From an uncultured bacterium (GTDB taxonomy: Bacteria > Oederibacteriota > Oederibacteriia > Oederibacteriales > Oederibacteriaceae), in the NCBI GenBank assembly GCA_965112635.1, contig OZ218778.1, forward strand, positions 928,001-992,000: a stretch of DNA of 64,000 nucleotides, given 5' to 3'. Shown here one piece after another: positions 31,872 through 63,623 of the stretch (position 1 is the first letter of the stretch; every line of letters begins with the position of its first letter). The translations under genes and the position numbers were made by a program. The notes under the pieces were generated by a model, which was not told where the DNA came from, did not search any database, and worked only from the letters and a program-made list of their open reading frames with translations.

Positions 31872-32587
31872 GACCGGACGGCAGGATGCCGGAAAAAATG
31901 AGAGAGGTCAAGATCCAGCGCGGGTTCCTGGCGCATGCGGAAGGGTCTGTATTAGTGGAGATCGGGACGACCAAAGTGATTTGCGCGGTCACGGTAGAGG
32001 AAAAGGCGCCGATGTTCCTGGAAGGCACGGGAAAAGGGTGGGTCACCGCGGAGTACGGCATGCTGCCGCGTTCCACGCAGACCCGCAGTCCCCGGGAAGC
32101 CAGCCGGGGCAAGGTAGGCGGCAGGACCCATGAGATCCAGCGTTTGATCGGCCGGTCTTTGCGCGCGGTCACGGACCTCAAGGCTGTGGGAGACCATACC
32201 CTGGTCGTGGACTGCGACGTGCTGCAGGCGGACGGGGGCACCCGCACGGCCTCCATCACCGGTTCTTTTGTGGCCCTGTATGACGCCTTCCTGTTCATGA
32301 AACAACAAGGGGTCATTAAAAAGATCCCCTTACTGGACTATGTGGCGGCCACCAGCGTGGGAATTTTGGACGGAAAAAATATTCTGGACCTGTGCTACGC
32401 CGAGGACTCCAAGGCCGAGGTGGACATGAACGTGGTGATGACCGGAAAGGGGCAGTTCGTGGAGGTGCAGGGCACCGCCGAGCGGAACCCTTTCAGCGGC
32501 GAGCAATTGCAGGCGCTCCTCAAGCTGGCTGGCAGCGGTATCCAGGAACTGGTCGGGGTCCAGAAAAAGCTGATCGGGGAGCTGTAA
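31868..32587 (+). CDS. rph: Ribonuclease PH
   Basis: [22 protein letters not shown] and [16 protein letters not shown] motifs. Confidence 0.97.
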
Positions 32588-41245: not shown

Positions 41246-43948
41246 ATGCCAAAAAATATTGATAAATTAATTATCAATAAGCCATACGAGGAGCCACAAG
41301 AGCATTGGCTTTATATTAGAGAGACACAAGATTTTGAACTGAAGTCTGGAAGGCGGAAGTCAGGTTATTGGAGAGCAACTACAAGAAATATAACTAATTT
41401 TGACGATCCTGGTGAATTTGTTGAAATTGAATTGGTTAATAAAATCAGACCGCGAGTTAAGAAGTGGAAAGAAAATGATTATCCAAATATTACTGGTGTG
41501 ACTCGAAAGCTTTTAAGATTTTGGAATGATCATTCTTTAAGGCAACAACCTCTTTTCTGGTGTCAACTTGAGGCCATAGAAACAGCTATTTGGCTTACTG
41601 AGGCTAGCTTAGCCGAAAAGCAGGGTATAAATATTCTTAATGATGGTAGTGCATGGGAAAGGCAGTGTTTAAAACTTGCAACCGGAACTGGTAAAACTGT
41701 CATTATGGCAATGCTGATTGCTTGGCAGGCCCTTAATAAAATAGCTAATAATAAAGATTCTAGATTTTCTCGAAATATTTTAGTGGTTGCTCCTGGATTA
41801 ACAGTGCGCGATCGCTTACAGGTCTTAAAGCCGGAGAACGAGGACAATTTTTATCAGAGTTTCTTACTTGTTGATTCCACAATGTGGCAAGAGCTTTTAC
41901 AGGCTAAAATTATTGTGACTAACTGGCATACATTAGCGCCGTTTAATGAGAATTATGGTCCTAAAGTTGTTAAAAAAGGCCCAGAAAGTGAAGAAGCTTT
42001 TTTCCGTAGGGTTATTTCCGATTTTGGAAATGCTAAAAATATACTTGTTATTAACGATGAGGCTCATCATTGTCATAGGCCTTCTTCTGATGAAGATGAG
42101 GAAGAAAAAGATAAAGCAACTATATGGGTAAGCGGCATTGATCGAATCCATAACGCACGCGGCGTATTAAAGGCATACGATCTTACAGCTACGCCTTTTA
42201 AGCCTACAGGAATGAATAATTTGGGTGAACAACTTTTTACTTGGATTGTTAGCGATTTTGGACTGAATGATGCTATAGAGAGTGGACTTGTAAAAACCCC
42301 TAAAGTTGCTGTGCGGGATGATTCTAATGTGGGTCCTGATTTGAAATCAAAATTATTCCATATTTATCCCTCCGTAAAAGAGGATTTAAACCGTAGGGCT
42401 GAGCCACATGAGGGTTTACCTGATCTTGTGAGAAACGCTGTAAATATATTAGGTGGTGACTGGCTGAGAGAAAAAGAATCGTGGGAAAAGCAAAACCCTC
42501 CTAGAGAAACGCCGCCAGTTATTATTGTTATTTGCAATCGCACTGAAACAGCGGCTCGTTTGGAATATTCGCTAGAGAATGGATATTTTTCTATTAATGA
42601 ATTAAGTGACAAAAATAGATTTATTCGTATTGACCAGGATGCGTTAGATAAAATTGAATCTGGCGATGAAGATAAATTGATCGGTTCAGGAAAAGATTTG
42701 GTAAAAAAGGAACGTGATAAATTCAACACTGTTGGAAAAAAAGATCGACCAGGTGAGCAAATACAATGTGTTATTGGCGTAAACATGCTTTCGGAGGGAT
42801 GGGATGCTCGAACGGTTACTCACATCCTTGGTTTGCGTGCTTTCACAAGCCAACTTTTATGTGAGCAGGTTATAGGACGAGGTTTGCGCCGTATTTCTTA
42901 TGACGTTAATGATGATGGTTTTTATGAACCAGAATATGTGACTGTATTTGGTGTTCCTTTTACATTCCTTCCTGCTGAACAGAAAATCGGTGTGCCAAGG
43001 ATTGAGAAACCTAAAACAAAGATTGAACCTGTTGTGGATAGAAAGGAACTAAAGATTGATTGGCCTCATGTATTAAGAGTGGAATACAAACTGAGTTATT
43101 TTCTTGATCTTGATTGGAATAAATTAGAAAAACTTACCCTTTCCGCGGAAGACGCACCTACAATTGTAGAGGTTGCCCCTGTTATTGATGGTAAACCAAA
43201 ATATGACCAACTAAGTGAGATAGATTTAGAACGTCTTGCCGAAGAACATCGTTTACAACAACTAAAACTGCAGGCTGCAGTTAGACTACATGAACAATTA
43301 GGTAAAAACTGGGAGGGGGATGCCGGTAGTCATATTAGCCAACTGATGCAATTATTTGATGACTTTTTAATATCAAACAAACTTGATATTAAAGTCCCTC
43401 TATTTGCGGGTACGGAAAAGTTAAGAAATATTGTTATTGCTCTGAATGCTCAACGAATAATAAATCATATCGGCAATTTCATTCGCAGTTCTAGTAAAGA
43501 AATTCCAAATCTAGTTCTTGACCCTGTTAGACCAAAAAGAAGTACATCAACGGCTATGATCTGGTATACAACAAAACCTACACAGCCGGTGAAAAAGAGT
43601 CAAATAAGCCATATTGTTATTGATAGTGGTTGGGAAAAGGTTGGGTTTGAATTTGAGCGCAATAGGATTTCTAGTTTAATTTCTTGGGTAAAGAACGACC
43701 ACCTTGGATTTGAAATTTACTACCTTTGGCAAGGGCAAGCTAAAACTTATTATCCGGATTATATTATTAGATTTAATGCTGAACGCTACATGGTTCTTGA
43801 AATTAAAGGTCAGATAAAAGAACAGGATAAGGCAAAGTGGCAAGCTGCTAAAGAGTGGATACAGGCAGTTAATGCAAATGGTTTGTTTGGAACGTGGGAG
43901 TTCAAGGTACTAGATGATCCGAGATTGCTTTTTGAGGTTATTAAATAA
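41246..43948 (+). CDS. Type III-like restriction endonuclease/helicase (Res)
   Basis: KLATGTGKT, NDEAHH, MLSEGWD and EQVIGRGLRR motifs; C-terminal YPDY...LEIKG. Confidence 0.92.
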   Translation: MPKNIDKLIINKPYEEPQEHWLYIRETQDFELKSGRRKSGYWRATTRNITNFDDPGEFVEIELVNKIRPRVKKWKENDYPNITGVTRKLLRFWNDHSLRQQPLFWCQLEAIETAIWLTEASLAEKQGINILNDGSAWERQCLKLATGTGKTVIMAMLIAWQALNKIANNKDSRFSRNILVVAPGLTVRDRLQVLKPENEDNFYQSFLLVDSTMWQELLQAKIIVTNWHTLAPFNENYGPKVVKKGPESEEAFFRRVISDFGNAKNILVINDEAHHCHRPSSDEDEEEKDKATIWVSGIDRIHNARGVLKAYDLTATPFKPTGMNNLGEQLFTWIVSDFGLNDAIESGLVKTPKVAVRDDSNVGPDLKSKLFHIYPSVKEDLNRRAEPHEGLPDLVRNAVNILGGDWLREKESWEKQNPPRETPPVIIVICNRTETAARLEYSLENGYFSINELSDKNRFIRIDQDALDKIESGDEDKLIGSGKDLVKKERDKFNTVGKKDRPGEQIQCVIGVNMLSEGWDARTVTHILGLRAFTSQLLCEQVIGRGLRRISYDVNDDGFYEPEYVTVFGVPFTFLPAEQKIGVPRIEKPKTKIEPVVDRKELKIDWPHVLRVEYKLSYFLDLDWNKLEKLTLSAEDAPTIVEVAPVIDGKPKYDQLSEIDLERLAEEHRLQQLKLQAAVRLHEQLGKNWEGDAGSHISQLMQLFDDFLISNKLDIKVPLFAGTEKLRNIVIALNAQRIINHIGNFIRSSSKEIPNLVLDPVRPKRSTSTAMIWYTTKPTQPVKKSQISHIVIDSGWEKVGFEFERNRISSLISWVKNDHLGFEIYYLWQGQAKTYYPDYIIRFNAERYMVLEIKGQIKEQDKAKWQAAKEWIQAVNANGLFGTWEFKVLDDPRLLFEVIK

Positions 43949-44826: not shown

Positions 44827-47226
44827 ATGATCGATCCTAAAATAATTTCAATTCACAAGAAGTACTCTTTCTTGTTAAGTATGTCTGAAGATGATTTTCG
44901 CGACAAAGTTGTACGCCCTTTATTTTTGCGCATGAAACTTACTGATGGAAGGGATTTGTGTGGCGTAAATGAAAATGGAAGGGATACTCTTTTTATAGGA
45001 CAAAACAGTCTTAGGCAGGAAGAATTATATTATATACAAACAAAGAAAGGTAAATTGAATAAAACAGCAAAAGCAGCACAAAATGTGATTACTTCTATTA
45101 CACAATTAATAACTGCATTACAAACATGTTATATTTTTGTGACAAATAAAAGAAAGGTTTACCCTAGTCATGTGTTGTTGTGTGCAAGCGGAACAATTAA
45201 TGATGAGGCTCGAAAACATATATACGATACGGTTAAAGATCCGAGAGTTAAATTTTATGACAGCGATGATCTAATACCTTTAATTGACGAGTTGTATCCT
45301 GAATTATGGTTGGGTATTGATGCAGATAAATTACCTTATTTAAAAAATTTGAAAAAATGTTTAGAACAAATTAGTGAAAGTTCATTTTTAACAGATTTAG
45401 TGGCTGTAGATTCGAAATCCACAGTTGTTACAAATGAATTGTATGTTACGTTAAAACTAAATTTTTCTGAAGAAGCTACTAAGCAATATAGAGGCAAGAC
45501 GATTCATGAGCCCAAAATCGTTGAAATTCCAGCAGAGGCAATTTTAAGGAAGCCGCAAAATAATATTCTTATTTTGGGCGGACCAGGATCTGGGAAATCA
45601 ACAATTATTAAACGAATAGCTTATGTTTTGTGTGAGCAGCTTATAAAAGATAACCTTTCAGTAAATTTACCTGTTTTATTACGTGCGATTGATATCGTAG
45701 ATTCTCAAGATGATCTGATGAGCATTTGTAATAAATCAATGCAAGAAATCGCTTTATCTAGCAAACCATGCTTTTCGGTAGATGACTTACAAAACGGTAA
45801 CTTAACAATTTTAATTGATGCGCTTGATGAGGTCGCTGATGTAGATAAAATTAAAAAGATATTAAGTAAAGTTGAGGAGTTTGGCCAAAAGTTTATTAAG
45901 TGCAAGATAATTCTTACCTCTAGAGAATATACATATATTAAAAATTTAGAAGAACTGAAAAAATATGCAGAATACAGGGTAAGTAATATTGATTTTACTC
46001 AGGCAATGAAAATAATTGAGAAATTAAGCAAAAGAAAATCTTGCCCCAGAGGTGTTTTGCAGGAAACGATAAGACGGCTACAGGATATTCATGGAGTAAC
46101 CCTTAGTCCTTTGTTGGTAACAGTATTTGTAGCAACCTCAGACTATTCACGAAAAGATATACCAGCCAATATTACTGAGTTGTTTAAAAAATTCACTGAA
46201 ATGATGCTAGGAAGGTGGGATTCAACTAAGGGTCTTAGCCAACAATATCATTCCAATTTAAAGGATTTTCTTTTGAGAAGGTTGGCCTATGAAATGCATA
46301 AAGATGGAAAAGTTATTATTGATGAGAAATATTGCATAGAATTTTTTACTCAAGAATTAGAAATAAGGGGACAAAGACATAGTGATATTGCAATATTAAT
46401 ACAGGAAATATTACATCGTTCCGGTCTTTTCCGTTGTAATGAGGGAAAGGTTGAGTTTAGACATCTATTGCTACAAGAATTTTTTGCGGGAAGAGGTATC
46501 CAAAATCCTTCCGAAGTTATTGAATTGATTAAAGCACAATGGTGGCAACGTGCAATAATATTTTATTTTGGCGAAAATCCAGGTGATAGCAATACGCTGG
46601 AAAAGACAATTTCCGATTTAAATACAGTGAATGTTAATGAAAGATTTATAGCAACAGTTACATTAGGATTAGCTGTCCAGGCGTGTTATTTAATACATGT
46701 TTCCCATAAATATAACTTTTTACGTTGGATAATATTGGGATTAGCTGAAATTAAGGATGATTTACTTAAAGAAATATTAAATCAAGGGCACAAATATCCT
46801 ATTACATTATTTATTCTATATTATTTATTTGGGAGAGATTCAGTCGCATTTGATATTTTAGATAGGTGTTCACCAACCTTTTTAGAAGAAATACTCCAAG
46901 AATGCAAAAATGAAAACAGCAAAGAAACGGTCAGGTTTTGGTTTATTGTTGGATTATTTGAGTGTGGTTATTTAAAAGAGGCGCAAATACAATTAAAAAA
47001 TTTCAGGCCAAAAGATGAAAGGTTATTATTAGCTTTGCATTTGGGTTGTTGTTTGATAGAAAATGTTAAAGTAATTGATGGAGAAAAACGAATTCTAGCT
47101 CGAAAAATACGGGATGGTTTCACACCAAGAATTAACCATTTAATACTTCAGGTGAAAGATGAATATAAGTCGGATCTACTAGAAGTAAGGAAAAATAAAA
47201 TTGAGGCTATAGAATATAAGCAATAA
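44827..47226 (+). CDS. NACHT/STAND NTPase with an N-terminal restriction-endonuclease-like domain
   Basis: E..F...V.PLF ... E.G.D ... IQTK at the N-terminus; GGPGSGKS, LIDALDE, SPLL and FRH...QEFFA motifs. Confidence 0.88.
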   Translation: MIDPKIISIHKKYSFLLSMSEDDFRDKVVRPLFLRMKLTDGRDLCGVNENGRDTLFIGQNSLRQEELYYIQTKKGKLNKTAKAAQNVITSITQLITALQTCYIFVTNKRKVYPSHVLLCASGTINDEARKHIYDTVKDPRVKFYDSDDLIPLIDELYPELWLGIDADKLPYLKNLKKCLEQISESSFLTDLVAVDSKSTVVTNELYVTLKLNFSEEATKQYRGKTIHEPKIVEIPAEAILRKPQNNILILGGPGSGKSTIIKRIAYVLCEQLIKDNLSVNLPVLLRAIDIVDSQDDLMSICNKSMQEIALSSKPCFSVDDLQNGNLTILIDALDEVADVDKIKKILSKVEEFGQKFIKCKIILTSREYTYIKNLEELKKYAEYRVSNIDFTQAMKIIEKLSKRKSCPRGVLQETIRRLQDIHGVTLSPLLVTVFVATSDYSRKDIPANITELFKKFTEMMLGRWDSTKGLSQQYHSNLKDFLLRRLAYEMHKDGKVIIDEKYCIEFFTQELEIRGQRHSDIAILIQEILHRSGLFRCNEGKVEFRHLLLQEFFAGRGIQNPSEVIELIKAQWWQRAIIFYFGENPGDSNTLEKTISDLNTVNVNERFIATVTLGLAVQACYLIHVSHKYNFLRWIILGLAEIKDDLLKEILNQGHKYPITLFILYYLFGRDSVAFDILDRCSPTFLEEILQECKNENSKETVRFWFIVGLFECGYLKEAQIQLKNFRPKDERLLLALHLGCCLIENVKVIDGEKRILARKIRDGFTPRINHLILQVKDEYKSDLLEVRKNKIEAIEYKQ

Positions 47227-47861: not shown

Positions 47862-49745
47862 ATGGGAACAACCCAGGTTATTAGCCGAGACTATGACATA
47901 TTCAAGAAATATGTAGGAGCTTTAAAAGAAACAAACCAGCCCGGACAAGCTATAGGATTATGCCCCTTCCATGAAGATACTATTCCTTCTCTTAGCGTAA
48001 ACAGCCTAACAGGTGAGTGGTATTGCCATTCCTGTAAAGAGGGAGGTAATCTTCTCGGATTTTACATGAAGCTAAAAACTGGTATAGATCAGGAAACGGC
48101 TGTTAAAGAAATTGAGGAGCTGTATAAAGAAAATTCAATTAAAGCTCTGGAAGGTGATCATAAAGAAATACTAGAAACTCCAAAAGCATCTTGCGCAATA
48201 ATGCAGCAAATAGCCGCTTACATCTATACAGACCTGCAAGGTAATCCTTTACGCCGCGTTATCCGATATGAACCTAAAACTTTCAGACAGCAGCACTTTA
48301 AAAATGATAAATGGGTTTGGGGTAGGGGTAATACTGAGGATGTTTTATATAACCAGCCTGAAATTGTTCAAGCTGAAACCGTATTTATTGTTGAGGGTGA
48401 GAAGGACTGTGAGAGCTTAAAGAAATTTGAATTGGTTGCTACTACCTGCATTAATGGGGCTGGTAAGTGGAAAGATTCATACAATGCACAATTTAAAGGC
48501 AAAAAGGTAATTATTCTTCCTGATAATGATGAGCCAGGTAAAGAACACGCGCTTATGGTTGCTCAGAGCGTAAAAGGGATAGCTGAATCTGTAAAGATCG
48601 TGGAATTGCCAAACCTACCTGATAAGGGTGATGTTTCAGACTGGATTGCACAAGGTGGTACTAAGGATAGCCTGCTTTTTATCGCTGAAGTAACTGATGA
48701 GTGGAAGCCTAATTCGACTACGTTCTCTGTTCCGCTTACTAATGCAGAAATATGTAAAACGGAAACAGAGGTAACCTTACCTCAGATTAAATCCTTAGAG
48801 GATTCCTTACCTAGCGATTATGAACTCATTTCTCAAAATATTCAGATTGAATGGTTAGTGGAAAAATTAATTGCAAAAAAGGCCATTACAGTTATTCATG
48901 CAAAAGGTGGCACTGGAAAAACAGGATTTATTGTTGGTTTGGCTAAGGCGGTAACTCAAGGAAATTATTTCTTAGGTCTAAAGACGCAGCAGAACAAGGT
49001 TACTTATTGCGATTTCGATAACCCGTTAGATGTACTGATCTCGAGGATCAAACAGGTAGGTGCTTCTGGGGTAAAGGTATGGCATAGATCAAATCTTGAA
49101 ATTAAACTTCCTAAAATTGATTCAGAAGGATGGGAGCAATTCAAAAGCTTACCTCAGGACAGCCTTTTAATCTTTGACACTCTTAGAGCTTCACAGAGCT
49201 TAGATGAAAACGATGGCCGACATATGGCTATTGTTATGGAAAGGTTCAGATCGCTCTGTGACGTTGGTTATACGGTAGTTCTTCTGCATCACAATCCCAA
49301 ATACAATGATCGGGTTTATAAAGGTTCTTCATCAATTTCTGACTTGGCTGATTGTGTTATCAGTTTAGAGAAAAGGAAAAAGAATAAGCCGGACGAAATC
49401 CTAGATGATAGCGACAAGGCGGGTGAGTTCTGTTTCTGGATGGGCACGGACAAAACAAGATATGCTCCTTTTCAAATATTTCTTAAATATGATCAAGAAA
49501 ACGGTTTTTCTCTTGCCACTGGTGGACCTAATGAAGATTGTCTGTTAGCTATTCAAGAAATAATTAAGAAGTTTAACGCTGAAAATAATAAGTGGCTTAA
49601 TCAAAGGGAATTGGTGGAAAAGGTTGTTCAGGAAACGGTAATTAAGAAAGCTAAGGCTTATCACTTATTAAGTGAGGGGAAAGAAAAGTATTGGTCTTTT
49701 GAGAAAGGTGAAAGTAATTCAAAGATCTATAGGGTTAAGGAATGA
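47862..49745 (+). CDS. Primase-helicase: CHC2 zinc finger, Toprim and RepA/AAA_25 helicase domains
   Basis: CPFHED..PS...WYCHSC; VEGEKD, PDND.PG and KGDVSDW; AKGGTGKT, IFDTL, LLHH and GSS motifs. Confidence 0.9.
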   Translation: MGTTQVISRDYDIFKKYVGALKETNQPGQAIGLCPFHEDTIPSLSVNSLTGEWYCHSCKEGGNLLGFYMKLKTGIDQETAVKEIEELYKENSIKALEGDHKEILETPKASCAIMQQIAAYIYTDLQGNPLRRVIRYEPKTFRQQHFKNDKWVWGRGNTEDVLYNQPEIVQAETVFIVEGEKDCESLKKFELVATTCINGAGKWKDSYNAQFKGKKVIILPDNDEPGKEHALMVAQSVKGIAESVKIVELPNLPDKGDVSDWIAQGGTKDSLLFIAEVTDEWKPNSTTFSVPLTNAEICKTETEVTLPQIKSLEDSLPSDYELISQNIQIEWLVEKLIAKKAITVIHAKGGTGKTGFIVGLAKAVTQGNYFLGLKTQQNKVTYCDFDNPLDVLISRIKQVGASGVKVWHRSNLEIKLPKIDSEGWEQFKSLPQDSLLIFDTLRASQSLDENDGRHMAIVMERFRSLCDVGYTVVLLHHNPKYNDRVYKGSSSISDLADCVISLEKRKKNKPDEILDDSDKAGEFCFWMGTDKTRYAPFQIFLKYDQENGFSLATGGPNEDCLLAIQEIIKKFNAENNKWLNQRELVEKVVQETVIKKAKAYHLLSEGKEKYWSFEKGESNSKIYRVKE

Positions 49746-55159: not shown

Positions 55160-55396
55160 TTATATCTTTTTGATTTTTATCAGCCCTTTTATAAGCTTAC
55201 TTGGATCAGCTTTGAACATCTCTGCAACCTTAAAAAGGGTTGAAAGTGAGTGTGCCCTACCAGCTTCAAGCTGCTGATAGTGTCTTACTGAGAAGCTATA
55301 ATTAAGTACATTCGTTTGTACCATCTTTCTTTTTAAACGTAACGCTCGATACCTAGTTCCTAGTTCACGAAATTCTTTAAGGTATTCATCTTTCAT
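55160..55396 (-). CDS. XRE-family HTH regulator (C-protein-like)
   Basis: ELG.R.R.LR....M.Q...RHYQQLEAG...L.TL.KVA pattern; divergent from the three-gene cluster. Confidence 0.8.
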   Translation of the reverse strand: MKDEYLKEFRELGTRYRALRLKRKMVQTNVLNYSFSVRHYQQLEAGRAHSLSTLFKVAEMFKADPSKLIKGLIKIKKI

Positions 55397-55547
55397 GGCT
55401 TTATCCCTTTCCTGTGTTTACCTAAGAGATAACGCCTTACGAGCAAAAAAACCACGAGCAGAAAGGCGCAAAAAGTATTGCGGTGGTTATTTATGGGTGA
55501 TAAGCTCAATTATTAGCACGTGCGAAATGACGCAAGGGGAGGGTAAT

Positions 55548-56264
55548 ATGGGCAAAGTGTTTATAGAGGGTTTCTATTCAGATTTCAGTACCAAGATAAA
55601 AGATTTCAAGAAGAACGAAGATCGGGCATTTGTGTTTGATCTTTGTAGGGAATTCATCTTAACAGCCAAGAAAAGTGGTAATGAATGGTATAAAAATGAA
55701 AAGGTTTACCAAGCGGTTATCTTAATAATCTATTGCTGGAACTTTGCAGCCCAGAAAACTAAGAATACAAAGAAGGGTGCAAATATATTAATTAATAAAT
55801 TATCTGTTCGTAATGCGTTAAAGAGAAACAATAAACTGTTTTCTTCGCTGGAAGGTAAGCGGTTACACGACAGTTTGACAGAAGAAGATTATAAAAATAT
55901 AACGACTATATATTCTGACTTTAAAGATATATTCGACCAAACCGGCGCATCAAAAGTCCTTAGTGTTTTTAATCCCAACATATTTGTTATGTGGGATACC
56001 GGTATTAGAAGGTATTTAAAGAAAATGTATTTTAAGGATGAGAAAGGTTCGGCTGTAAAGGTTTTTAGGGATTTTACTAATAATAAGGCAAAAATTAATT
56101 CTGATGGCATTAAAAACGGTGAAAATGTTAGGAACTATTTAAATTTCATTAAGGGATTAAAGATAGTAATTGATAAATGCCACTTAAAACAATTTGATGA
56201 GAAAAATTACCCTCTTGCAAAAAAATTAGATGAATTCCATTACGCAAAAATAATTGGGGGATAG
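55548..56264 (+). CDS. HhH-superfamily (DNA glycosylase-like) protein A
   Basis: I.CWN ... TGASKVL...NP..FVMWD ... YL.F ... LAKKLDE; GGGAGG RBS before ATG 55548. Confidence 0.6.
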   Translation: MGKVFIEGFYSDFSTKIKDFKKNEDRAFVFDLCREFILTAKKSGNEWYKNEKVYQAVILIIYCWNFAAQKTKNTKKGANILINKLSVRNALKRNNKLFSSLEGKRLHDSLTEEDYKNITTIYSDFKDIFDQTGASKVLSVFNPNIFVMWDTGIRRYLKKMYFKDEKGSAVKVFRDFTNNKAKINSDGIKNGENVRNYLNFIKGLKIVIDKCHLKQFDEKNYPLAKKLDEFHYAKIIGG

Positions 56265-56266
56265 CT

Positions 56267-57109
56267 ATGGTAGGCAGAGGGAATACGGATATGGAACTGG
56301 TGTCTAAATCATATTGTGTTGACGTTGAAATCCTTGAGAAGGATATAGCTAAGGAACTTAAAAAGTGGGAAAAAATATATAAATACTATAAAGATGCTGA
56401 TGATGTTCTTTATTCTATTGGGAAAGAAGATTTTAAAACTACAGAACATTTAGTTTCAAAGTTATGGATCATTGGTAGAAGTTACGCAACACAACTGGAC
56501 AGGCATTTCGACAAAAAGAAAGTCATTAATAATAAGCCAAAGATATTGTGGTTTGCTAAGGCAATCGGAAAGCAGGATCAGAGGGAATTATTAAACTACT
56601 TAAATAAAATTAAGAATGTTAAGAGCGTAAAACTTACCAGCAAAGTGGTAGGCGATAAAATAAAGGTCACAATTAACGATAATGAATTTAAAAAGTTGGA
56701 GTTGATATTTAAGTGTTTGGTTCTGTTTGTTGATTTGCTGGGTAAAACGGGATGGATTAGAGTAAAAAGAAACTCTTCATATTTATCATTGGTTTCCTTC
56801 TCTTCAAAAATATTACATTTTTATAATCCCTTAATTCCAATATTTGACAGTTTAGCTTCTAAAAACATCGGGAAAGCCATTAAATTAACAAAACATAAAG
56901 GTATGTCTAAAGGGTATTTGAAAATGCTGGATGATAAATTTAAAATTAGAGTTATTCAAGGAAGAAAATATATCCCTATAGGGAAAAGGTTGTTCTGGAT
57001 TGACAAGAAAAAGAAAGACTATGAAGGGTATGTTTTTAAGGTTTTTGTTCTATGTAGTGTTTTAAGAAAAAAGCCAAGACTGGTCGATTTTTATCTATAT
57101 TCAAAATAA
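56267..57109 (+). CDS. HhH-superfamily (DNA glycosylase-like) protein B
   Basis: KLWIIGRSYA..LDR ... SFSSKILHFYNP.IPIFDS ... RLVDFYLY. Confidence 0.6.
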   Translation: MVGRGNTDMELVSKSYCVDVEILEKDIAKELKKWEKIYKYYKDADDVLYSIGKEDFKTTEHLVSKLWIIGRSYATQLDRHFDKKKVINNKPKILWFAKAIGKQDQRELLNYLNKIKNVKSVKLTSKVVGDKIKVTINDNEFKKLELIFKCLVLFVDLLGKTGWIRVKRNSSYLSLVSFSSKILHFYNPLIPIFDSLASKNIGKAIKLTKHKGMSKGYLKMLDDKFKIRVIQGRKYIPIGKRLFWIDKKKKDYEGYVFKVFVLCSVLRKKPRLVDFYLYSK

Positions 57110-57125: not shown

Positions 57126-57848
57126 ATGTCTAAAGGGATAACAGACAAACTAAACAAGAGTGTGGGGCTGGAACTAAATTGGGGTAGGTTAAAAGCGGCA
57201 CAAAAGGATTACCAGGAGAAATTTGCTTTATTAGATAAGAAACTTTATGAATTATGCGAGTTTAATGCCGAGTACAACCGAATTGATGGTATTGTTGCGC
57301 GATTATGGATCATTGCAAGATCTTACATGACGGGTTTGGAACGTCAGATAGATACTGGTAACAGGAGTGAGGATAATGGGAGGGCGTTGAGAGTATTTCT
57401 ACATTACTATATGAAACGCAGGTTGGATTTTAATAAAATATTGAATAAGGTTAGAAGTATTAAAAAGTTAACAAGGACATCTTTATCTGATATTTGTGAA
57501 TTTCAAAGTAATTTATTCCATTTGCTTTCACCAGTACTAAGAGAGAAAAAGTTAGGTGGTAGTAGGTCGCCTCGCTCATTCATTTCCAAATATTTCCATT
57601 TTCATAATCCTTGTATACCTATAATAGATACTGTAAGCCAAAAAAACCTAAACAAAATAGTTACTAGAAATAGATCATTTTTTAATAAGAAGTTATCAGG
57701 TTTGAGAAAAGCAATTCCACTTCAAAATATAGACAAGACTTATTACCTTCATTCTCTTAAATTATTGTTGTTTGAAGCTATAAAAGAAAAGAAAGAATTT
57801 AAGGATATAACAGTAAAGGAGTTGGATTATTTTCTCTTAACGCATTGA
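57126..57848 (+). CDS. HhH-superfamily (DNA glycosylase-like) protein C, paralog of B
   Basis: RLWIIARSY...LER ... SFISKYFHFHNP.IPIIDT ... KELDYFLL. Confidence 0.6.
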   Translation: MSKGITDKLNKSVGLELNWGRLKAAQKDYQEKFALLDKKLYELCEFNAEYNRIDGIVARLWIIARSYMTGLERQIDTGNRSEDNGRALRVFLHYYMKRRLDFNKILNKVRSIKKLTRTSLSDICEFQSNLFHLLSPVLREKKLGGSRSPRSFISKYFHFHNPCIPIIDTVSQKNLNKIVTRNRSFFNKKLSGLRKAIPLQNIDKTYYLHSLKLLLFEAIKEKKEFKDITVKELDYFLLTH

Positions 57849-58244: not shown

Positions 58245-59090
58245 GTGGACCTATATGAAATGATTAATACAAGGAATCTGGATGAAATGATTAAAGAGGC
58301 TGAAATTAAGTTTAATAATAATGATTTTGAGTCCTCATTTAGGTTATCAGCTTTATTTCTTGTTTTTGCCGAAACACCAGGGCCGGTTGTATCCGATAAA
58401 GATAGAGTAATGGCCATATCTTACGAGACACTCAGCCTAACTAAAATTACCCCTATTGATTTAAAAGAAACAGAGAAATTACTTAATAGACTCTTCAAAG
58501 ATGAGAGAAAAGATGAAGGAGGAGAATTAATTAGAAAGTTATTAACAAGCAAAATATATTTAAGACAGGCCCAAAAATGTTCTTCTTACATTTTTGTAAT
58601 GAAAGGGGAATTAGAACCTTTAGATGAACCTGATCCTTATCTCGATTTTCTAAAAAATAAATCAGTGGAAGATGTTGCCAAATATCTTATAAAAATAGTA
58701 GATACCGGTTTAAAAGTTAAATCTGACTATCTAGCATTGCTGGAAGAAAGGTGTGTTGCTGCTCGGTTTTTAGAAGATAACGCTATTTTAGAAGAAACAA
58801 AGAAAAGGATTGCTGAAATTGATCCTAATAATGGGTGGCTTAAGGCTAAAAGCAGTTCTTCTTGTTTTATTGCTACAGCTGTTTATGAATCACCTTTTGC
58901 ACCTGAAGTGATGTGGCTACGGGAATGGAGAGATCAATTTTTATTAAAACATTTATTGGGAAGGGTAAGTGTCAGAGCTTATTATTTTATTAGCCCATAT
59001 TTTGCTAATTGGATATCAAAGTCTGAACTCAAAAAAAGGGTTATACGAAAACTATTAGATAGATTAATAAATTTGTTAAAGAGGAAGTAA
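58245..59090 (+). CDS. Protein with a C-terminal CFI-box domain
   Basis: SSCFIATAVYES...EV..LR.WRD..L....GR.....YY..SP..A. Confidence 0.8.
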   Translation: MDLYEMINTRNLDEMIKEAEIKFNNNDFESSFRLSALFLVFAETPGPVVSDKDRVMAISYETLSLTKITPIDLKETEKLLNRLFKDERKDEGGELIRKLLTSKIYLRQAQKCSSYIFVMKGELEPLDEPDPYLDFLKNKSVEDVAKYLIKIVDTGLKVKSDYLALLEERCVAARFLEDNAILEETKKRIAEIDPNNGWLKAKSSSSCFIATAVYESPFAPEVMWLREWRDQFLLKHLLGRVSVRAYYFISPYFANWISKSELKKRVIRKLLDRLINLLKRK

Positions 59091-59093
59091 ATT

Positions 59094-59531
59094 ATGAAAG
59101 CTGTTGAAAACCTTTTTAAGTTATTTGGAGCTTTATTTGGGCTACTCAGAGCTTTATTTTTGGTCTTTGTTATTGCACTAGCCTTTCCTTTCATTTACTT
59201 GATAAATCAATTACCTTCTGAATGGATCGTGCTAAAAGGCGCACTTGTAGTTGGAGTTGTTATCGGTGTTATTTTTGGTTTAGTAGCTTTAACAGATCAT
59301 AAAATTAGAAGAAAAGCCCATGTAGTAAGTATTTTGGCTGCTGTTTTTACGGCAGTTATTTGTTATGTAGGTTATTACATGGGAGGGTATGGACTTGATC
59401 TTAGCCATTCTAAATCCACGGAGATATTTGGTGCTTTTCTGTTTATTTTCACTATTTTAGGAAGTTTACTAACCTGGGTTGCAAGCTTATTTTATGTTTA
59501 CCATTATGTTGAATATGAAAGATTGAGATAG
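59094..59531 (+). CDS. Four-TM membrane protein
   Basis: Four hydrophobic segments; 3 nt after the previous stop codon. Confidence 0.7.
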   Translation: MKAVENLFKLFGALFGLLRALFLVFVIALAFPFIYLINQLPSEWIVLKGALVVGVVIGVIFGLVALTDHKIRRKAHVVSILAAVFTAVICYVGYYMGGYGLDLSHSKSTEIFGAFLFIFTILGSLLTWVASLFYVYHYVEYERLR

Positions 59532-59690: not shown

Positions 59691-61125
59691 GATTATGTCA
59701 AGTTTTCGGGTGTAAGTTGTTAAGTCCACGGGTAGTAGGTTAAGCAACATTTAGCAAGCCTTCCTGAACCAGATCACCTCCTTGAGATTTCCAGAGTTTT
59801 CTTTTAGACCAATTATCTTCCTGAGTGGTAGAAACAGACCAGACGATCTTAGCGACCTCCAATTCGGAGTGCATGGTGCCGGCAGCACGGGTGCGCCGTT
59901 TGATCTCGGCGATAAAGCGTTCGATGAGATTGCTGGAGCGGAGAGTGCGCCAGACATGCTGGGGTTCGTTCATGAAGGTGGTGAGGTTGTCGAACCTATC
60001 GAGAGCCATAGCCGTAGCTCTAGGATAGAGTTTCATCCAGCGAGCTTGGAGGCGGCCAAAGGCCTGGAGAGCCAGTTTGCGGGAATCGGCCCAATAGATA
60101 GCTTTGAAATCGTTAAGGAAGGCACCCCAGTCACGGCGAGGCATAATGGCTCTGAGGTTTCGGATCTTGTGGACCAGGCAGAGCTGGTGAGGGACAGCCA
60201 GGAGGTTTTTGACGGCCTGCTCAATGGCCTTGTGTTCATCGGAGATGACGAGCCTGAGGGTGTTGCGGTTAAGGCCTCTTTTGAGGAGGTCATTGATAAA
60301 AGCCTGCCAGGAGTCCAAGGACTCTCTATCGCCGAGAAGGAAACCCAGGACATGGCGATTGCCAAAGGAATCCATGCCTAGGGCGAGCAATAGAGCTTGT
60401 TTGGAGGTAAAACCAGGTCTTCTGACAGGCAGGTAGGCGGCGTCCAGGAGCAGGTAGGTGATGTTGGGAGGAATGGGACGATTCATCCACTGACGGATGG
60501 CTGGCTCCAAGGCGTTGGTGAGAGTGGAGACGGTGGAGTGAGAGAGCTTTGTGCCCAAAGCGGCATTTATCTCAGCGGCGGTAGAGCGAGTGGCAGCGCC
60601 TTTGAGCCAGAAGCGGATGGCGAGGAAGGAAGCCAGGCCTTTTCCAGCTTGTTTGAGGGCGGTAAGCAAGGGCGAGTGAAGGGACCCCTGGCGTAGAGCT
60701 GGTTTGTGCAGAAAAAGTCTGCCAAAAAAGCCGGGGACAGAGGTGGATTTAAAACCGTTTCTTTTAGGGCTGTTTTCAAGGCGTTCATAAGGCTGACGGC
60801 CCAAAAACTCGTCCCTTTCAGCCTCCAGTTGAATATCTAAAGCCTGGGCAATGATGGCATTGACCTCCTGGCCAATTACTTCCAGAGCGACACCGGGCTG
60901 AGCGATCTTCCTGACTTTTTCTCTGATTTTCTGGTTCGTATAAATCTCAATTCTTTGGGATAATGACTTCACGGGTGTAGACCTCCTTTTAGTTTGGGTT
61001 TGGTGACCTAGACAATCACCTAGTCTACGCCCGTGGACTTATTTTTGGGGCCGCAAGGTTAGATTGCTGCAATCTAACCTTGCCTTTCCCCTCGTTGAAG
61101 TTACACCCAGGAATGGTACACAACC
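59691..61125 (-). mobile_element. IS256-family insertion sequence, ~1435 bp
   Basis: Imperfect TIRs GATTATGTCAAGTTTTCGGGTGTAAGTT / GGTTGTGTACCATTCCTGGGTGTAACTT; 8-bp TSD GAGGAAGA at 59683-59690 and 61126-61133. Confidence 0.9.
59740..60972 (-). CDS. IS256 (Mutator-type) DDE transposase
   Basis: RNG, YLLLDA, LVISDEH, QLCLVH and RSSNLIER...EIKRR motifs. Confidence 0.93.
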   Translation of the reverse strand: MKSLSQRIEIYTNQKIREKVRKIAQPGVALEVIGQEVNAIIAQALDIQLEAERDEFLGRQPYERLENSPKRNGFKSTSVPGFFGRLFLHKPALRQGSLHSPLLTALKQAGKGLASFLAIRFWLKGAATRSTAAEINAALGTKLSHSTVSTLTNALEPAIRQWMNRPIPPNITYLLLDAAYLPVRRPGFTSKQALLLALGMDSFGNRHVLGFLLGDRESLDSWQAFINDLLKRGLNRNTLRLVISDEHKAIEQAVKNLLAVPHQLCLVHKIRNLRAIMPRRDWGAFLNDFKAIYWADSRKLALQAFGRLQARWMKLYPRATAMALDRFDNLTTFMNEPQHVWRTLRSSNLIERFIAEIKRRTRAAGTMHSELEVAKIVWSVSTTQEDNWSKRKLWKSQGGDLVQEGLLNVA

Positions 61126-61203: not shown

Positions 61204-61860
61204 ATGTTTGATGAAGTAAAAGGAAAAGTGGGTTCAGTTAAAATTAAGAAAAATGATATTTTAAAAGACGGTCTAAAGTTGTTATCTCTATCAGGAATTA
61301 TTACTTTTAATTCGGAAGGTAAGAAGGCAGGCCAGGCTTATAAATATTACAACAGGGATGGCTCCTTTAAAGAAAAGGTAGTTTGGATATTTGACCTTAA
61401 GGGTAATGAGATTGAATGTGCTGTTTATGATAAGGATAATTCTCAGGTTGAAAGAAGGACTGAAAATATTAAAGGAAATAAAACGGAATCAGCTTTTTAT
61501 GATAAAGAAGATAAGGTTGTTCATAAAACCGCAGTTGTTAAAGATTTCAAAAATAAGCTTTTAGATGTAACTCACCTTAGTTCTGATGGTTCTATTTTAG
61601 AAAAAGAGGTTATTAAAATTGATAAGGCTGCTGTTGGCGAAAATGCAAACGCTGATAAGGATTGTGCTTTTGAACACGATGAATTTAACAATGTAAAAAG
61701 TATCCGTTTCTTTTATGAACAAGGAAATACTTCTTTAGAGCAAGAGTTTCTGTATAAGTATGACCAACAAGGTAACTGGATTGAACAGGCTGAGTATAAG
61801 GTAAAAGGGAATAACACTGAACCTGTTTCAATCACATACAGAACTATTAAGTATCTTTAG
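61204..61860 (+). CDS. YD-repeat-like beta-sheet protein
   Basis: KGKVGSVK start; repeated (F/Y)D..GN units; YKYDQQGNWIE...YRTIKY. Confidence 0.55.
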   Translation: MFDEVKGKVGSVKIKKNDILKDGLKLLSLSGIITFNSEGKKAGQAYKYYNRDGSFKEKVVWIFDLKGNEIECAVYDKDNSQVERRTENIKGNKTESAFYDKEDKVVHKTAVVKDFKNKLLDVTHLSSDGSILEKEVIKIDKAAVGENANADKDCAFEHDEFNNVKSIRFFYEQGNTSLEQEFLYKYDQQGNWIEQAEYKVKGNNTEPVSITYRTIKYL

Positions 61861-62037
61861 CGGAATTCAGATGATCTATAGTCTGATGATAAGAATACTC
61901 ATGAAAGGTGAAATTATTGAAATGCGAGCGTGCTCCTAAGGAAAACCATATAGGATTTGCTATGGCATTGAGTTGTTTTAGTAAAAGCTATTGGATTACC
62001 TTTAAAAACACAATTTCTTATTGAAGGATTAAAAAAC

Positions 62038-62865
62038 ATGAGATTACTTTCTATTAAGTTTGATAGTTTTATGCAATTTAAAGGTAAACAAGAAATAACG
62101 TTTTCTGAAAAGAATGGAATTACAGTTATTAGAGGTGGTGGCGGTAGAGGAAAAACAGGGATATATAGAGGTTTTGTTTTCGGTTTATTTGGTGAAAAAA
62201 CATTAGTTCAGGATGTAGATAAAGGCAGTGACGTTATTTTTACAAATATTTCTAGCGTTGAGGAAAACAAACAAGCAAAAGCTTCTGTTAAGGTTGCTTT
62301 CGAACATTCTGGTGACAGGTATGTAATTAAGAGAGGGTTAGCCTGTATAAAAAATGTTAATGGATATAGTGAACAAAAAGATAGTGCAGTTATGAAAATA
62401 ACATCTAAAGATGGGGAAGTTAAAATAATTAAAAGTGAAGATGCAATAGCAAGCAAAATTAATAAAATTGTCGACCGGAAATTAAAGGATTCCTTTTTTA
62501 TTGACGCAGAAAACATTGAAAAGATAAGGAAGCTACCTGAAAAGGAATTCATTACGGCACTTGCTCAGTTAGCAGTAAGGTCATCAGGCGCGTTGGAAAT
62601 GCCGTTATTTATGGATAGTCCGTTTGGGGGATTGGATGACAAGCATAGGTTAACCTTTATAAATACTATTCCGGAATATGCTTCTCAATTGATATTAACA
62701 ATAAATGCCGAGATGGGTCAAAGAGAGGCAAGTTATCTTACGAAAACCAATAAATGGGAGAAAGCTTACGATTTAATTGCTGATGGTAAGAATACGGTTA
62801 TCAAAGAAGTTGCAGTATCAGAATTTATCAGAAGTTTAGGGAAGGGAGAGGTTAAATGCCATTAA
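62038..62865 (+). CDS. DndD/Rad50-like ABC-type ATPase head lacking the coiled coil and signature motif
   Basis: F.QF.G.Q.I.F, GGGGRGKT and FFIDAE motifs, followed directly by FITAL...PLFMDSPFGGLD..HR...SQLI. Confidence 0.75.
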   Translation: MRLLSIKFDSFMQFKGKQEITFSEKNGITVIRGGGGRGKTGIYRGFVFGLFGEKTLVQDVDKGSDVIFTNISSVEENKQAKASVKVAFEHSGDRYVIKRGLACIKNVNGYSEQKDSAVMKITSKDGEVKIIKSEDAIASKINKIVDRKLKDSFFIDAENIEKIRKLPEKEFITALAQLAVRSSGALEMPLFMDSPFGGLDDKHRLTFINTIPEYASQLILTINAEMGQREASYLTKTNKWEKAYDLIADGKNTVIKEVAVSEFIRSLGKGEVKCH

Positions 62866-63623
62866 ATTGTAAACCTATAAAAAAAGCTGTTATAAATTAT
62901 TATACTCGAAGACTATTCGAAGAAAAGACGCTTGCAGATTCTTTTGTTGGATTTATAGAGCTGTTAAAGGGAAAAGATGAATATCAAATTAAAAAAGAGA
63001 TATTAATCAGAACTTCTTTACTTGGCTTAATTTTTACAAAGGATTTTTCAACTCATAGCGGAATGTGTGAGTGTGATGCACTTACAAGCTTTGTAGGAGC
63101 TATCTACACATTCAAAAATGACATTATAAAAATTAGCAATCCAGGGATGCATTCATTAGGAGAGAGAATAAAGTTAATTGGAAAACTTTTAAAATACCAA
63201 GAAAGGCCGGGACACCCAGAACGTCCAGATGCACTGTTAGATTTTTACTCTTTATTCTTGAATTATTGTTTTCCTGATTTGTTTCCTTTCTATAATGATC
63301 ATATATCGGTTGGAGCTTTGGAAATGTTTAGAACCCATCCTAAAATAGCGTCTAGATATCCTCTTATTCCAAAAATCAAAATCGAAAATTCATGCGAAAA
63401 TTATCTTAAGATATTAAAGTTCTACAATTTTCTAATAATTAATTGTTTCACGGACCTGGATGAAGTTGGAAAAGAATGTGAATCGATTTTCAAGAAGAGA
63501 GGGTTAAATATAAAACTATCGAAATTAAGGATGCTAGATAAATATTTCATAAAACAAGGTTGGGATGTATTTACAAAGAAAACTGAGAAAAAAAGGAAAT
63601 GGGTAGAATTGGTGGTTGATTAG
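62856..63623 (+). CDS. HhH-superfamily-like protein D (divergent)
   Basis: DFYSLFLNYCFPDLFPFYND ... YL.I..FY ... LRMLDKYF..QG; same motif order as proteins A-C; overlaps the ATPase by 10 nt. Confidence 0.5.
   Translation: MPLNCKPIKKAVINYYTRRLFEEKTLADSFVGFIELLKGKDEYQIKKEILIRTSLLGLIFTKDFSTHSGMCECDALTSFVGAIYTFKNDIIKISNPGMHSLGERIKLIGKLLKYQERPGHPERPDALLDFYSLFLNYCFPDLFPFYNDHISVGALEMFRTHPKIASRYPLIPKIKIENSCENYLKILKFYNFLIINCFTDLDEVGKECESIFKKRGLNIKLSKLRMLDKYFIKQGWDVFTKKTEKKRKWVELVVD

Follow-up and report, generated by a model that had tools for sequence, protein, structure and literature searches.

A 275-amino-acid open reading frame in an AT-rich defence island is probably a relic of pbeC rather than a new minimal defence system

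Closest described systems and identity of the 275-aa ORF

The PbeABCD, or CxC-DndE, system has been described by Xiong et al. in 2019 (PMC6459918) and in a 2024 reappraisal from the Aravind laboratory (PMC10853773). The reappraisal presents PbeC as a CxC-type ABC ATPase and a sister of DndD, treats a DndD/CxC ATPase and DndE as an obligate pair, and describes dimerization of these ATPases via a coiled coil, with an insert of approximately 400 residues between the two lobes (PMC10853773). Among 17 mapped PbeC loci, we found an ORF of 691–761 aa directly upstream of pbeC in 16 and an ORF of 136–175 aa directly downstream in 15. The upstream ORF was PbeA (HKD nuclease plus SF2 helicase) in both loci that were scanned (L003 and L018, E = 1e-218 and 1e-222, respectively), and the downstream gene of ~147 aa, which overlaps pbeC by 4 nt at its start, is read here as the DndE cognate (PbeD).

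The stretch of bacterial DNA analysed here (the window) is 64,000 nt long. A first-pass annotation had drawn attention to a 275-aa ORF in which an N-lobe and a C-lobe of a DndD/Rad50-type ATPase are joined directly, with no coiled coil and no ABC signature, in an intact frame that runs 10 nt into the next gene. These structural points were borne out. The motifs GGGGRGKT (aa 33–40) and FFIDAE (aa 153–158, in place of the F-x-F-D-G-E of PbeC relatives) are followed, after 33 residues, by MDSPFGGLD (aa 192–200), both lobes are collinear with those of the nearest relative, P0002 (670 aa), the coiled coil and the signature belong to the part that is missing in comparison with relatives, and the frame is open up to and through the overlap. 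The sequence SSGA (aa 182–185) was considered as a candidate signature and rejected; it aligns with a non-signature AGG/AGK stretch of relatives. The gene is present as a single copy in its own genome (2.88 Mb, one contig), and the features of the locus are listed in Table 1.

Table 1 Coordinates of features at the 275-aa ORF and the adjacent gene.
Feature	Position	Strand	Remarks
GAAGGA, Shine-Dalgarno-like (putative)	62023..62028	+	9 nt 5' of the ATG of the 275-aa ORF; read from the sequence
275-aa ORF, probable internally deleted pbeC (CxC-type ABC ATPase) remnant	62038..62865	+	PADLOC, BLASTP; ATG start
N-lobe	62038..62526	+	Walker A GGGGRGKT; Pfam AAA_23 over aa 6–165
Deletion junction, aa ~164–170 (...RKLPEKE...)	62527..62547	+	N-lobe HSPs stop and C-lobe HSPs begin here
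C-lobe	62548..62865	+	Begins at FITALAQLA (helix after the lost signature), includes Walker B/D-loop PLFMDSPFGGLD, runs to stop
Purine-rich GGGAAGGGAGAGG in 3' end of remnant (putative RBS)	62839..62851	+	GGAG 7 nt 5' of the start of the 255-aa ORF
255-aa ORF, function not assigned	62856..63623	+	10-nt overlap with remnant (62856–62865)

The PADLOC PbeC profile PDLC02730 matched the 275-aa protein in two stretches (E = 4e-61, 205.6 bits), and Pfam AAA_23 did so with an E value of 1.3e-13, a resemblance far beyond chance. The matches to DndD were TIGR03185 (E = 1.3e-12), for which a score of 47.1 bits compares with a cut-off of 245.85, and PADLOC DndD (E = 7e-15), and the scores for NCBIfam Rad50 and SbcC were far below the cut-offs. 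A profile of the PbeC family matched Rad50 (E = 4.7e-12), with the family signature aligned to LSGGERA of Rad50. The assignment to the DndD/Rad50 type holds for the superfamily, but not for DndD itself; more precisely, the family is PbeC, the CxC-type ABC ATPase.

Extent of the deletion and change in the retained lobes

Alignment with P0002 by BLASTP paired aa 1–169 of the 275-aa protein with residues 1–172 (48% identity) and aa 164–268 with residues 565–669 (52% identity), leaving P0002 residues 173–564 without a counterpart, so that ~392 residues are gone in frame. In tblastn searches with full-length relatives, N-lobe matches stopped at 62526–62547. The gap of the 275-aa protein in the family alignment covers columns 197–616, the coiled-coil insert between the lobes being absent. 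The signature S-x-G-Q-R-Q (columns 605–610, 97–100% conserved in relatives) and the two Cys columns of the CxC hook (invariant in 82 of 82 relatives) fall within the deleted part, with which 23 columns of at least 90% conservation were lost. Residues 174–568 of P0002 had no match anywhere in the 2.88-Mb genome at E values of up to 1. No repeats that would explain the deletion were found at the junction. Deletion mediated by an insertion sequence (IS) was also rejected, the nearby 1435-bp IS lying 0.9 kb upstream and retaining an intact 8-bp target duplication.

Independent homologues of ~270 aa, for which the first-pass annotation had proposed a search, were found nowhere in 5.8 billion proteins: the 564 candidates of 151–482 aa yielded the 275-aa protein itself as the sole match. 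All 84 PbeC relatives that we found were 588–690 aa in length. Both lobes were matched in 52 of 67 genome loci, with a spacing of at least 1162 nt, and in 46 of 79 metagenome loci, with a spacing of at least 1078 nt, and the short form with the lobes close together occurred in none of these 98 loci. Two metagenome loci with apparent alignments across the junction (L147 and L151) were each found to contain a full-length gene (664 and 663 aa) preceded by PbeA, and 2.9 million viral contigs contained no relatives of the family. The first-pass annotation had held that full-length homologues alone, with nearly identical flanks, would indicate a recent deletion; the homologues are indeed full length only, but none is nearly identical. 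With a closest relative that is 48–49% identical, the age of the deletion cannot be fixed, and nothing shows that it was recent.

The retained lobes have themselves changed. The 275-aa protein keeps G33, G36, G38, K39, and T40 of Walker A as well as D193 of Walker B, and 51 of 65 retained columns that are conserved at 90% or more; the other 14 are altered, compared with a mean of 2.5 in full-length proteins. Among 33 columns with at least 98% conservation, six are altered (mean of 0.18 and maximum of 5 in the others), and the near-invariant positions affected are N35G, F155I, G157A, L163I, R198G, and T222I. The W of the QW of the PbeC family is deleted in the C-lobe. Unique changes numbered 47 for the remnant and 16 for P0002 (chi-square of 15.3), with the remnant exceeding P0002 for each of 81 single outgroups (81/81). 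In a tree of 83 sequences, the two proteins were sisters with a support of 1.0, and their terminal branches measured 1.02, the longest of the 83, and 0.21, respectively, an approximately five-fold difference. Full neutrality of the 31 excess missense changes would predict ~2.0 nonsense changes alongside them, with a probability of ~0.13 for none, a value for which indels are not yet counted. By this estimate, the open frame over 275 codons is only mildly surprising.

We also obtained a structure model of the 275-aa protein with AlphaFold2. The model was a compact Rad50-like head (pLDDT of 86.7, pTM of 0.87), with confidence being lowest around the junction (pLDDT of 61–76 for residues 150–200), and a Foldseek search retrieved Rad50 heads (for example, 4ncj, 3qku, 3qkt, and 3qf7) with E values of ~1e-13 and TMq of ~0.6. 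Crystallized Rad50 heads likewise consist of the two lobes, N and C, connected through a short linker, but these constructs retain the signature and the coiled-coil base, both of which are missing from the 275-aa ORF.

The downstream gene and the surrounding island

The purine-rich site near the 3' end of the remnant suggests that the 255-aa ORF may be translationally coupled to it. This ORF is a real, conserved gene: a search of 1.84 billion representatives retrieved a single homologue of its product, P0087 (250 aa, 58% identity, E = 1.8e-77), and the two proteins have identical NH2- and COOH-termini. The 255-aa protein matched no Pfam (E of up to 0.1), PADLOC, NCBIfam, or PHROG family, its own family was represented neither in the metagenome scan nor in viral contigs, and it was encoded in none of 146 PbeC loci. 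Descent of the gene from the DndE cognate was rejected, with an hhalign probability of 0.03% against the ~147-aa partner family. Prediction of a complex of the 275-aa and 255-aa proteins gave a score of 0.01 and a mark of 0.32, which speaks neither for nor against binding.

The first-pass annotation had described the 255-aa gene as a fourth HhH-like gene with the A–C motif order of its upstream paralogues and Leu in place of Lys. The alignment was reproduced, albeit in weak form: DFYSLFLNYCFPDLFPFYND of the 255-aa protein aligns weakly with SFxSKYLHFHNPxIPIxD of the paralogues p240 and p280, with the Lys of the S-K motif replaced by Leu. The hhalign probability for the 255-aa family against p240/p280 was 43% with a four-sequence profile (E = 2.5e-4, collinear over 129 columns) and 0.2% with a profile of two sequences; BLASTP of the 255-aa protein against p240/p280 gave nothing significant (E = 2.4), and a search of the own genome with the p240/p280 profile (A4) matched p280 and p240 only. 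These sequence comparisons weakly suggest a remote kinship with p240/p280. No link to HhH-GPD was found for the 255-aa protein, for which neither Pfam (E values of up to 0.1) nor a sequence search of the PDB (E values of up to 10) gave a relevant match. An AlphaFold2 model of this protein from two sequences (pLDDT of 40.6) was too poor for a fold search.

For the p240/p280 family, Atlas provided the leads PF27257 (HI_0787_N) and PF19827 (DUF6308), with HI_0787_N being present on a minority of Atlas neighbours (11% for p255 and 20–34% for p240). PF19827 had no match in the own genome at E values of up to 1, the family had no relatives in viral contigs, a PDB sequence search with the p240 profile returned nothing relevant, and our literature search found no paper on DUF6308 or HI_0787.

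The island that contains the remnant is AT-rich (33% GC) and mobile, and a host IS has inserted 0.9 kb upstream of the remnant. It carries genes for a primase-helicase, RadC, DUF932, and DUF6876 proteins, together with defence genes for a Type III restriction-modification (R-M) system, a STAND NTPase, and a toxin-antitoxin pair. The usual partners of PbeC are absent from the window and the genome. A search for PbeA by tblastn found nothing in the window except the Type III res gene (E = 0.004), and in the own genome only partial, generic helicase matches were obtained (best E = 1.4e-10) with a profile that also matched 14 of 14 control genomes. No sequence resembling the DndE cognate was found by tblastn near the remnant, the sole match in the window (E = 0.026) being located ~54 kb away in a G+C-rich part. 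The neighbour genes of the window were absent from PbeC loci and those of PbeC loci were absent from the window, in which no dndABCE genes were seen. None of 40 other genomes, all of which are related at the phylum level only, matched the island. Scanning for promoters and terminators revealed no excess (8 promoter-like sites versus 12.2 expected), positions 32000–64000 had no Rfam match, and the window contained no tRNA gene.

Interpretation of the locus and comparison with known systems

Of the three origins that the first-pass annotation had offered (a minimal sensor-effector pair, a dominant-negative decoy, and an in-frame deletion relic), the last is favoured by the restriction of homologues to full-length forms, the disappearance of the partners, the approximately five times faster evolution, and the alteration of near-invariant residues; the other two gained no positive support. 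We consider it probable that the 275-aa ORF, within its AT-rich island of defence genes, is a decaying vestige of pbeC and does not represent a new minimal system. A single in-frame deletion of ~392 codons (~1.18 kb) would have fused the N-lobe, just past the D-G-E motif, to the post-signature helix of the C-lobe. The entire coiled-coil arm and the CxC hook are gone, as are the signature and ~60 conserved residues that precede it, whereas Walker A, Walker B, and the D-loop remain. ATP in ABC ATPases is sandwiched by two heads, one supplying Walker A and the other the signature. Given that both the coiled-coil dimerization surface and the signature are lost, the remnant is not expected to function as a Pbe ATPase. 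PbeA, the ~147-aa DndE-cognate gene, and the other conserved neighbours are also gone, and the island is being remodelled, with the host IS inserted nearby. Since the deletion, the remnant has changed at a rate several times that of its sister, with alteration of invariant residues, as is expected under relaxed constraint. The frame is probably open partly by chance, and it may also persist in that ribosomes translating the remnant would reach the strong putative RBS and the start of the conserved 255-aa gene, which begins within its last 10 nt. The open frame, the kept GK-T of Walker A and D193, the confidently predicted head fold, and an overlap that fits a co-translated pair count against a relic, and the fast evolution could stem from an altered function rather than from decay.

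It is unlikely, in our judgement, that the two genes form a neofunctionalized minimal module, with a head-only ATPase or nucleotide-binding protein and a 255-aa protein in the place of the DndE cognate acting as a small sensor/effector or regulator. Such a module would account for a frame that stays open with a probability of ~0.13 under neutrality, for the retention of the P-loop and Walker B in a head whose fold is predicted with confidence, and for a conserved downstream gene (58% identity to P0087) whose first 10 nt lie within the remnant, at the position taken in relatives by the start of the ~147-aa gene. No second example, however, was encountered among the proteins, the 98 loci, or the viral contigs, and the deletion took more than just the arm, with the signature and the 23 highly conserved columns also gone. 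In addition, three positions with little or no variation in the family (N35 of Walker A, R198 of the D-loop, and T222) are altered, and the 255-aa protein is absent from PbeC loci and unrelated to the ~147-aa family. We regard as quite improbable the specific proposal that a head-only, signature-less ABC ATPase swapped DndE for a fast-evolving, HI_0787_N-like 255-aa protein and became a nucleotide-sensing module without a coiled-coil dimer or an ATP sandwich.

It is very improbable that the headpiece serves as an anti-defence decoy which mimics PbeC or DndD heads and poisons the Pbe or Dnd systems of recipients. A mobile island with primase-helicase, RadC, DUF932, and DUF6876 genes would be a suitable carrier, and a shortened subunit might in principle titrate away partners, but a protein without the coiled coil, hook, and signature lacks the known dimerization surfaces (PMC10853773). 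The host genome, moreover, contains no other Pbe or Dnd ATPase to poison, relatives were absent from the viral contigs and did not recur in the proteins or loci searched, and the neighbours are defence genes rather than an anti-defence cluster. That an assembly error dropped ~1.2 kb from an intact pbeC is hardly credible, with the junction in frame and free of any collapsible repeat, the retained lobes altered at invariant sites on a five-fold longer branch, all the partner genes missing as well, and the genome assembled as one contig.

If the ORF is a relic, it matters little in itself, being a further example of defence systems gained, broken, and overwritten in mobile islands, but it cautions against equating an intact frame and Walker motifs with a working ATPase; annotation pipelines would label it "AAA family ATPase" or "DndD." Were the reading as a minimal module true, the protein would be the first natural case of a coiled-coil ABC ATPase of the DndD/PbeC/Rad50 type cut to a signature-less head, and would bear on how much machinery nucleotide sensing needs. 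The 255-aa gene and the p240/p280 paralogues, uncharacterized families gathered in the island, may merit more attention than the remnant.

With regard to known systems, the remnant most closely resembles PbeC, with which it shares both collinear lobes (48–52% identity to P0002); Walker A, Walker B, and the D-loop are present, with the family-invariant N35, G157, and R198 altered. PbeC has a coiled coil, CxC hook, signature, and DndE-cognate, PbeA, and other partners, all of which the remnant lacks. With DndD, the ATPase of DNA phosphorothioation, it shares the superfamily and the lobe architecture, but its scores are far lower than those with PbeC profiles. The predicted fold matches the heads of Rad50/SbcC, from which the remnant differs in having neither a coiled coil nor a zinc hook.

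The AT-rich defence island

The genome that contains the window is a single contig of 2,876,006 bp. G+C content is 53-60% over window bases 1-32000 and 31-44% from approximately 33300 to the window end, and the low-GC stretch extends about 7.5 kb further. The AT-rich part of the window is a mobile defence island, with the 275-aa ORF studied here and the next gene, p255, at its window-end side. No tRNA, integrase match or flanking direct repeat was found for the island, and it was matched in none of 40 other genomes, all of them related only at the phylum level. Beyond the window end, where the low-GC stretch continues, three similar ORFs of 121-128 aa lie in a row (locus L002, 3994-4359, 4540-4926 and 6164-6535); we take them to resemble STAS/anti-sigma-antagonist proteins.

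A Mutator-family insertion sequence (IS), of which the genome carries seven copies, lies 0.9 kb upstream of the 275-aa ORF. Its G+C content of approximately 55% is host-like, inside an island of 0.33 G+C, and it interrupts a small CxxC ORF (start, 59549) within the 3' end. It was rejected as the cause of the deletion in the 275-aa ORF, being a simple insertion with an intact 8-bp target duplication. The neighbouring ORF p218 contains many repeats of beta-hairpin-like YxK/DKxxK segments.

Features of the AT-rich part of the window and motifs of the 275-aa ORF
Feature	Position	Remarks
Island contents	33879-54375	RelE-like, MqsA-like and PIN toxin-antitoxin genes; RNase_H_2-domain protein
RadC, DUF6876, DUF932	within 33879-54375	Island
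Type III methylase	38734-41244	Paired with res
Type III res	41246-43948	Paired with methylase
STAND NTPase	44827-47226	Island
Primase-helicase	47862-49745	Island
p280 and p240, tandem ORFs	56267-57109 and 57126-57848 (also 55395-56264)	
p281, 281-aa ORF	58245-59090	CFI-box-CTERM domain (NCBIfam NF041770, E 6.1e-24, aa 207-275)
145-aa ORF	59094-59531	Next after the 281-aa ORF; sequence looks hydrophobic
IS, Mutator-family transposase	59691-61125	1435 bp; Pfam E 1.5e-70
p218, 218-aa ORF	61204-61860	Between IS and 275-aa ORF; Pfam matches below threshold only
275-aa ORF	62038-62865 (+)	
DNA junction of the deletion	62527-62547	
p255, 255-aa ORF	62856-63623 (+)	
Walker A GGGGRGKT	aa 33-40 of the 275-aa ORF	
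FFIDAE	aa 153-158 of the 275-aa ORF	
MDSPFGGLD	aa 192-200 of the 275-aa ORF	

Probable loss of the PbeC middle and partner genes

The first-pass annotation had described motif positions in the 275-aa ORF, the lack of a coiled coil and of a signature motif, and an overlap of 10 nt with the next gene, and every one of these details was confirmed. BLASTP aligned aa 1-169 with residues 1-172 of the nearest relative, the 670-aa protein P0002 (48%), and aa 164-268 with its residues 565-669 (52%). Alignment with 82 relatives revealed one large gap (columns 197-616), which contains 23 of the 89 columns conserved at >=90% and takes both invariant hook Cys residues, the signature S-x-G-Q-R-Q and a conserved block that precedes it. 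Because part of the conserved C-terminal block is lost as well, the arm was not cleanly excised. No repeat that would explain the deletion was found at the DNA junction, and the missing middle of PbeC, the ABC ATPase of the Pbe anti-invader system, had no match elsewhere in the same genome at E up to 1.

A search for independent homologues of ~270 aa, as the first-pass annotation had proposed, returned none: among 564 candidate proteins of 151-482 aa only the ORF itself matched, and all 84 matches among longer proteins were 588-690 aa in length. Both lobes were present in 52 of 67 loci of the genome collection, never separated by less than 1162 nt (median separation, 1238 nt), with 7 loci matching the N-lobe only, 7 the C-lobe only, and 1 assignable to neither class. 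The metagenome collection yielded 79 loci, 46 with both lobes at least 1078 nt apart, 31 with the N-lobe only (many cut by contig ends) and 2 with the C-lobe only; two that apparently aligned across the junction were full-length genes. Viral contigs contained no relative. No family of short PbeC forms was found in these searches.

We mapped the neighbourhood of 17 loci of full-length relatives. A 691-761-aa ORF lies immediately upstream of PbeC in 16 of these loci and a 136-175-aa ORF immediately downstream on the same strand in 15, and most have a ~900-1100-aa protein further upstream and a ~450-480-aa protein further downstream. In the two loci scanned, L003 and L018, the ORF upstream of PbeC was PbeA (E 1.3e-218 and 1.4e-222), described in PMC10853773 as an HKD nuclease fused to an SF2 helicase. 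The large upstream protein bears Sigma70_r4, with an additional RNA polymerase alpha-CTD-like match in L003. Full-length PbeC sits in a recurrent five-gene row (L003, L018 and 15 further loci) of the ~900-1100-aa protein, PbeA, PbeC, a ~147-aa ORF and a ~460-aa ORF, the last with a radical-SAM match below threshold (E 6.9e-4). The ~147-aa ORF received no name from Pfam or PADLOC; its identification as the DndE cognate is our reading, based on its position and on PMC10853773, which re-describes the system and reports universal pairing with such a cognate (PbeD).

According to PMC6459918, defence requires all of pbeA-D. With tblastn at E up to 1, no Pbe partner was found in the window, apart from a generic helicase similarity to Type III res and scattered weak matches (E 0.007-0.2), none of which lay near the 275-aa ORF. 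In the same genome, the PbeA profile gave only partial, generic helicase matches, and it also matched 14 of 14 control genomes. Window ORFs p218, p255, p289, p280, p240 and p281 were present in 0 of 146 PbeC loci. We consider it fairly probable that the 275-aa ORF is a pbeC remnant that has lost arm, hook, signature and partners, and, judged from its sequence, it is most likely no longer a working Pbe ATPase.

Divergence, open frame and the p255 gene

The 275-aa ORF deviates at 14 of 65 retained columns conserved at >=90%, compared with a mean of 2.48 (sd 3.56) for full-length relatives and a maximum of 21 in P0083, a divergent 588-aa relative. At columns conserved at >=98% it deviates in 6 of 33 (N35G in Walker A, F155I, G157A, L163I, R198G after Walker B, and T222I; relatives, mean 0.18, maximum 5), and the near-invariant W of 'QW' is deleted. 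With a consensus outgroup, it showed 47 unique changes versus 16 for P0002 (chi-square 15.3), and it exceeded P0002 with 81 of 81 single outgroups. In a FastTree tree built from the retained columns, the two were sisters (support 1.0) with branches of 1.02 and 0.21, respectively, the former being the longest terminal branch among 83. Relaxed constraint would account for this rate, as would a change of function. A neofunctionalised minimal pair of the ORF and p255 is a reading that we regard as unlikely.

Possible single-base changes in the ORF comprise 120 nonsense and 1850 missense; 31 neutral extra missense changes would therefore be accompanied by ~2.0 nonsense changes, so that the probability of none is ~0.13, with indels uncounted. 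That the frame is open is slightly unexpected but settles nothing. In a pbeC remnant, chance may have kept it open, or it may serve as a leader of the p255 gene that overlaps it. AlphaFold2 (83-row alignment) predicted a compact head (pLDDT 86.7, pTM 0.87), with pLDDT dropping to 61-76 near the junction (residues 150-200); a deep alignment of the family can yield a confident model that tells little about function. That the ORF serves as a decoy seems highly improbable, and that it is an assembly artefact more so still.

The sole homologue of p255 among 1.84 billion representatives was the 250-aa P0087 (58% identity, E 1.8e-77). The two are identical at the N-terminus (MPLNCKP) and C-terminus (WVELV-D), and p255 is therefore a real, conserved gene. 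Its ATG is preceded, at 7 nt, by the GGAG of a strong purine-rich site inside the end of the 275-aa ORF. No family was found for p255 in Pfam, PADLOC, NCBIfam or PHROG, and p255 has no kinship with the ~147-aa family of partners (hhalign probability, 0.03%).

The first-pass annotation had called p255 a fourth HhH-like gene. BLASTP clearly shows p280 and p240 to be paralogues (E 1e-13), and they share the motifs LWIIxRSY and SFxSKxxHFxNPxIPIxD; kinship of p289 or p255 to them was not detected by BLASTP. A two-sequence p280/p240 profile matched the p255 pair with an hhalign probability of 0.2%. Enlarged to four sequences with two homologues (homologues turned up in just 2 of the 98 other genomes of this phylum), it matched with a probability of 43% (E 2.5e-4, 129 collinear columns spanning both motifs named in that annotation), and matched p289 with 1.3%. 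Kinship of p255 to the p240/p280 family is thus possible from profile comparison, and the HhH-like label is unproven: the sole HhH-GPD signal of the group was a Pfam match in p289 below cut-off (E 0.0031). As leads only, p240 adjoins protein-atlas clusters with PF27257 HI_0787_N (34% and 20% of members) and DUF6308, and p255 adjoins unnamed clusters, one set with HI_0787_N on 11% of members. We found no paper on HI_0787_N or DUF6308, and no relative in the PDB for p255 or the p240 profile. The uncharacterised p255 and p240/p280 families are more promising loose ends than the 275-aa ORF itself.

Comparison with PbeC, DndD and Rad50

The 275-aa ORF matched Pfam AAA_23 (E 1.3e-13, aa 6-165). Its homology to PbeC (PADLOC PDLC02730, E 4e-61) falls in two stretches, the first aligning aa 1-166 with positions 1-172 of the 651-position profile. 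PADLOC DndD profiles matched much more weakly than PbeC (E 7e-15), and the NCBIfam DndD score of 47.1 bits was below the cut-off of 245.85. The predicted fold resembled Rad50 heads, which Foldseek ranked first (E ~1e-13, TMq ~0.6).
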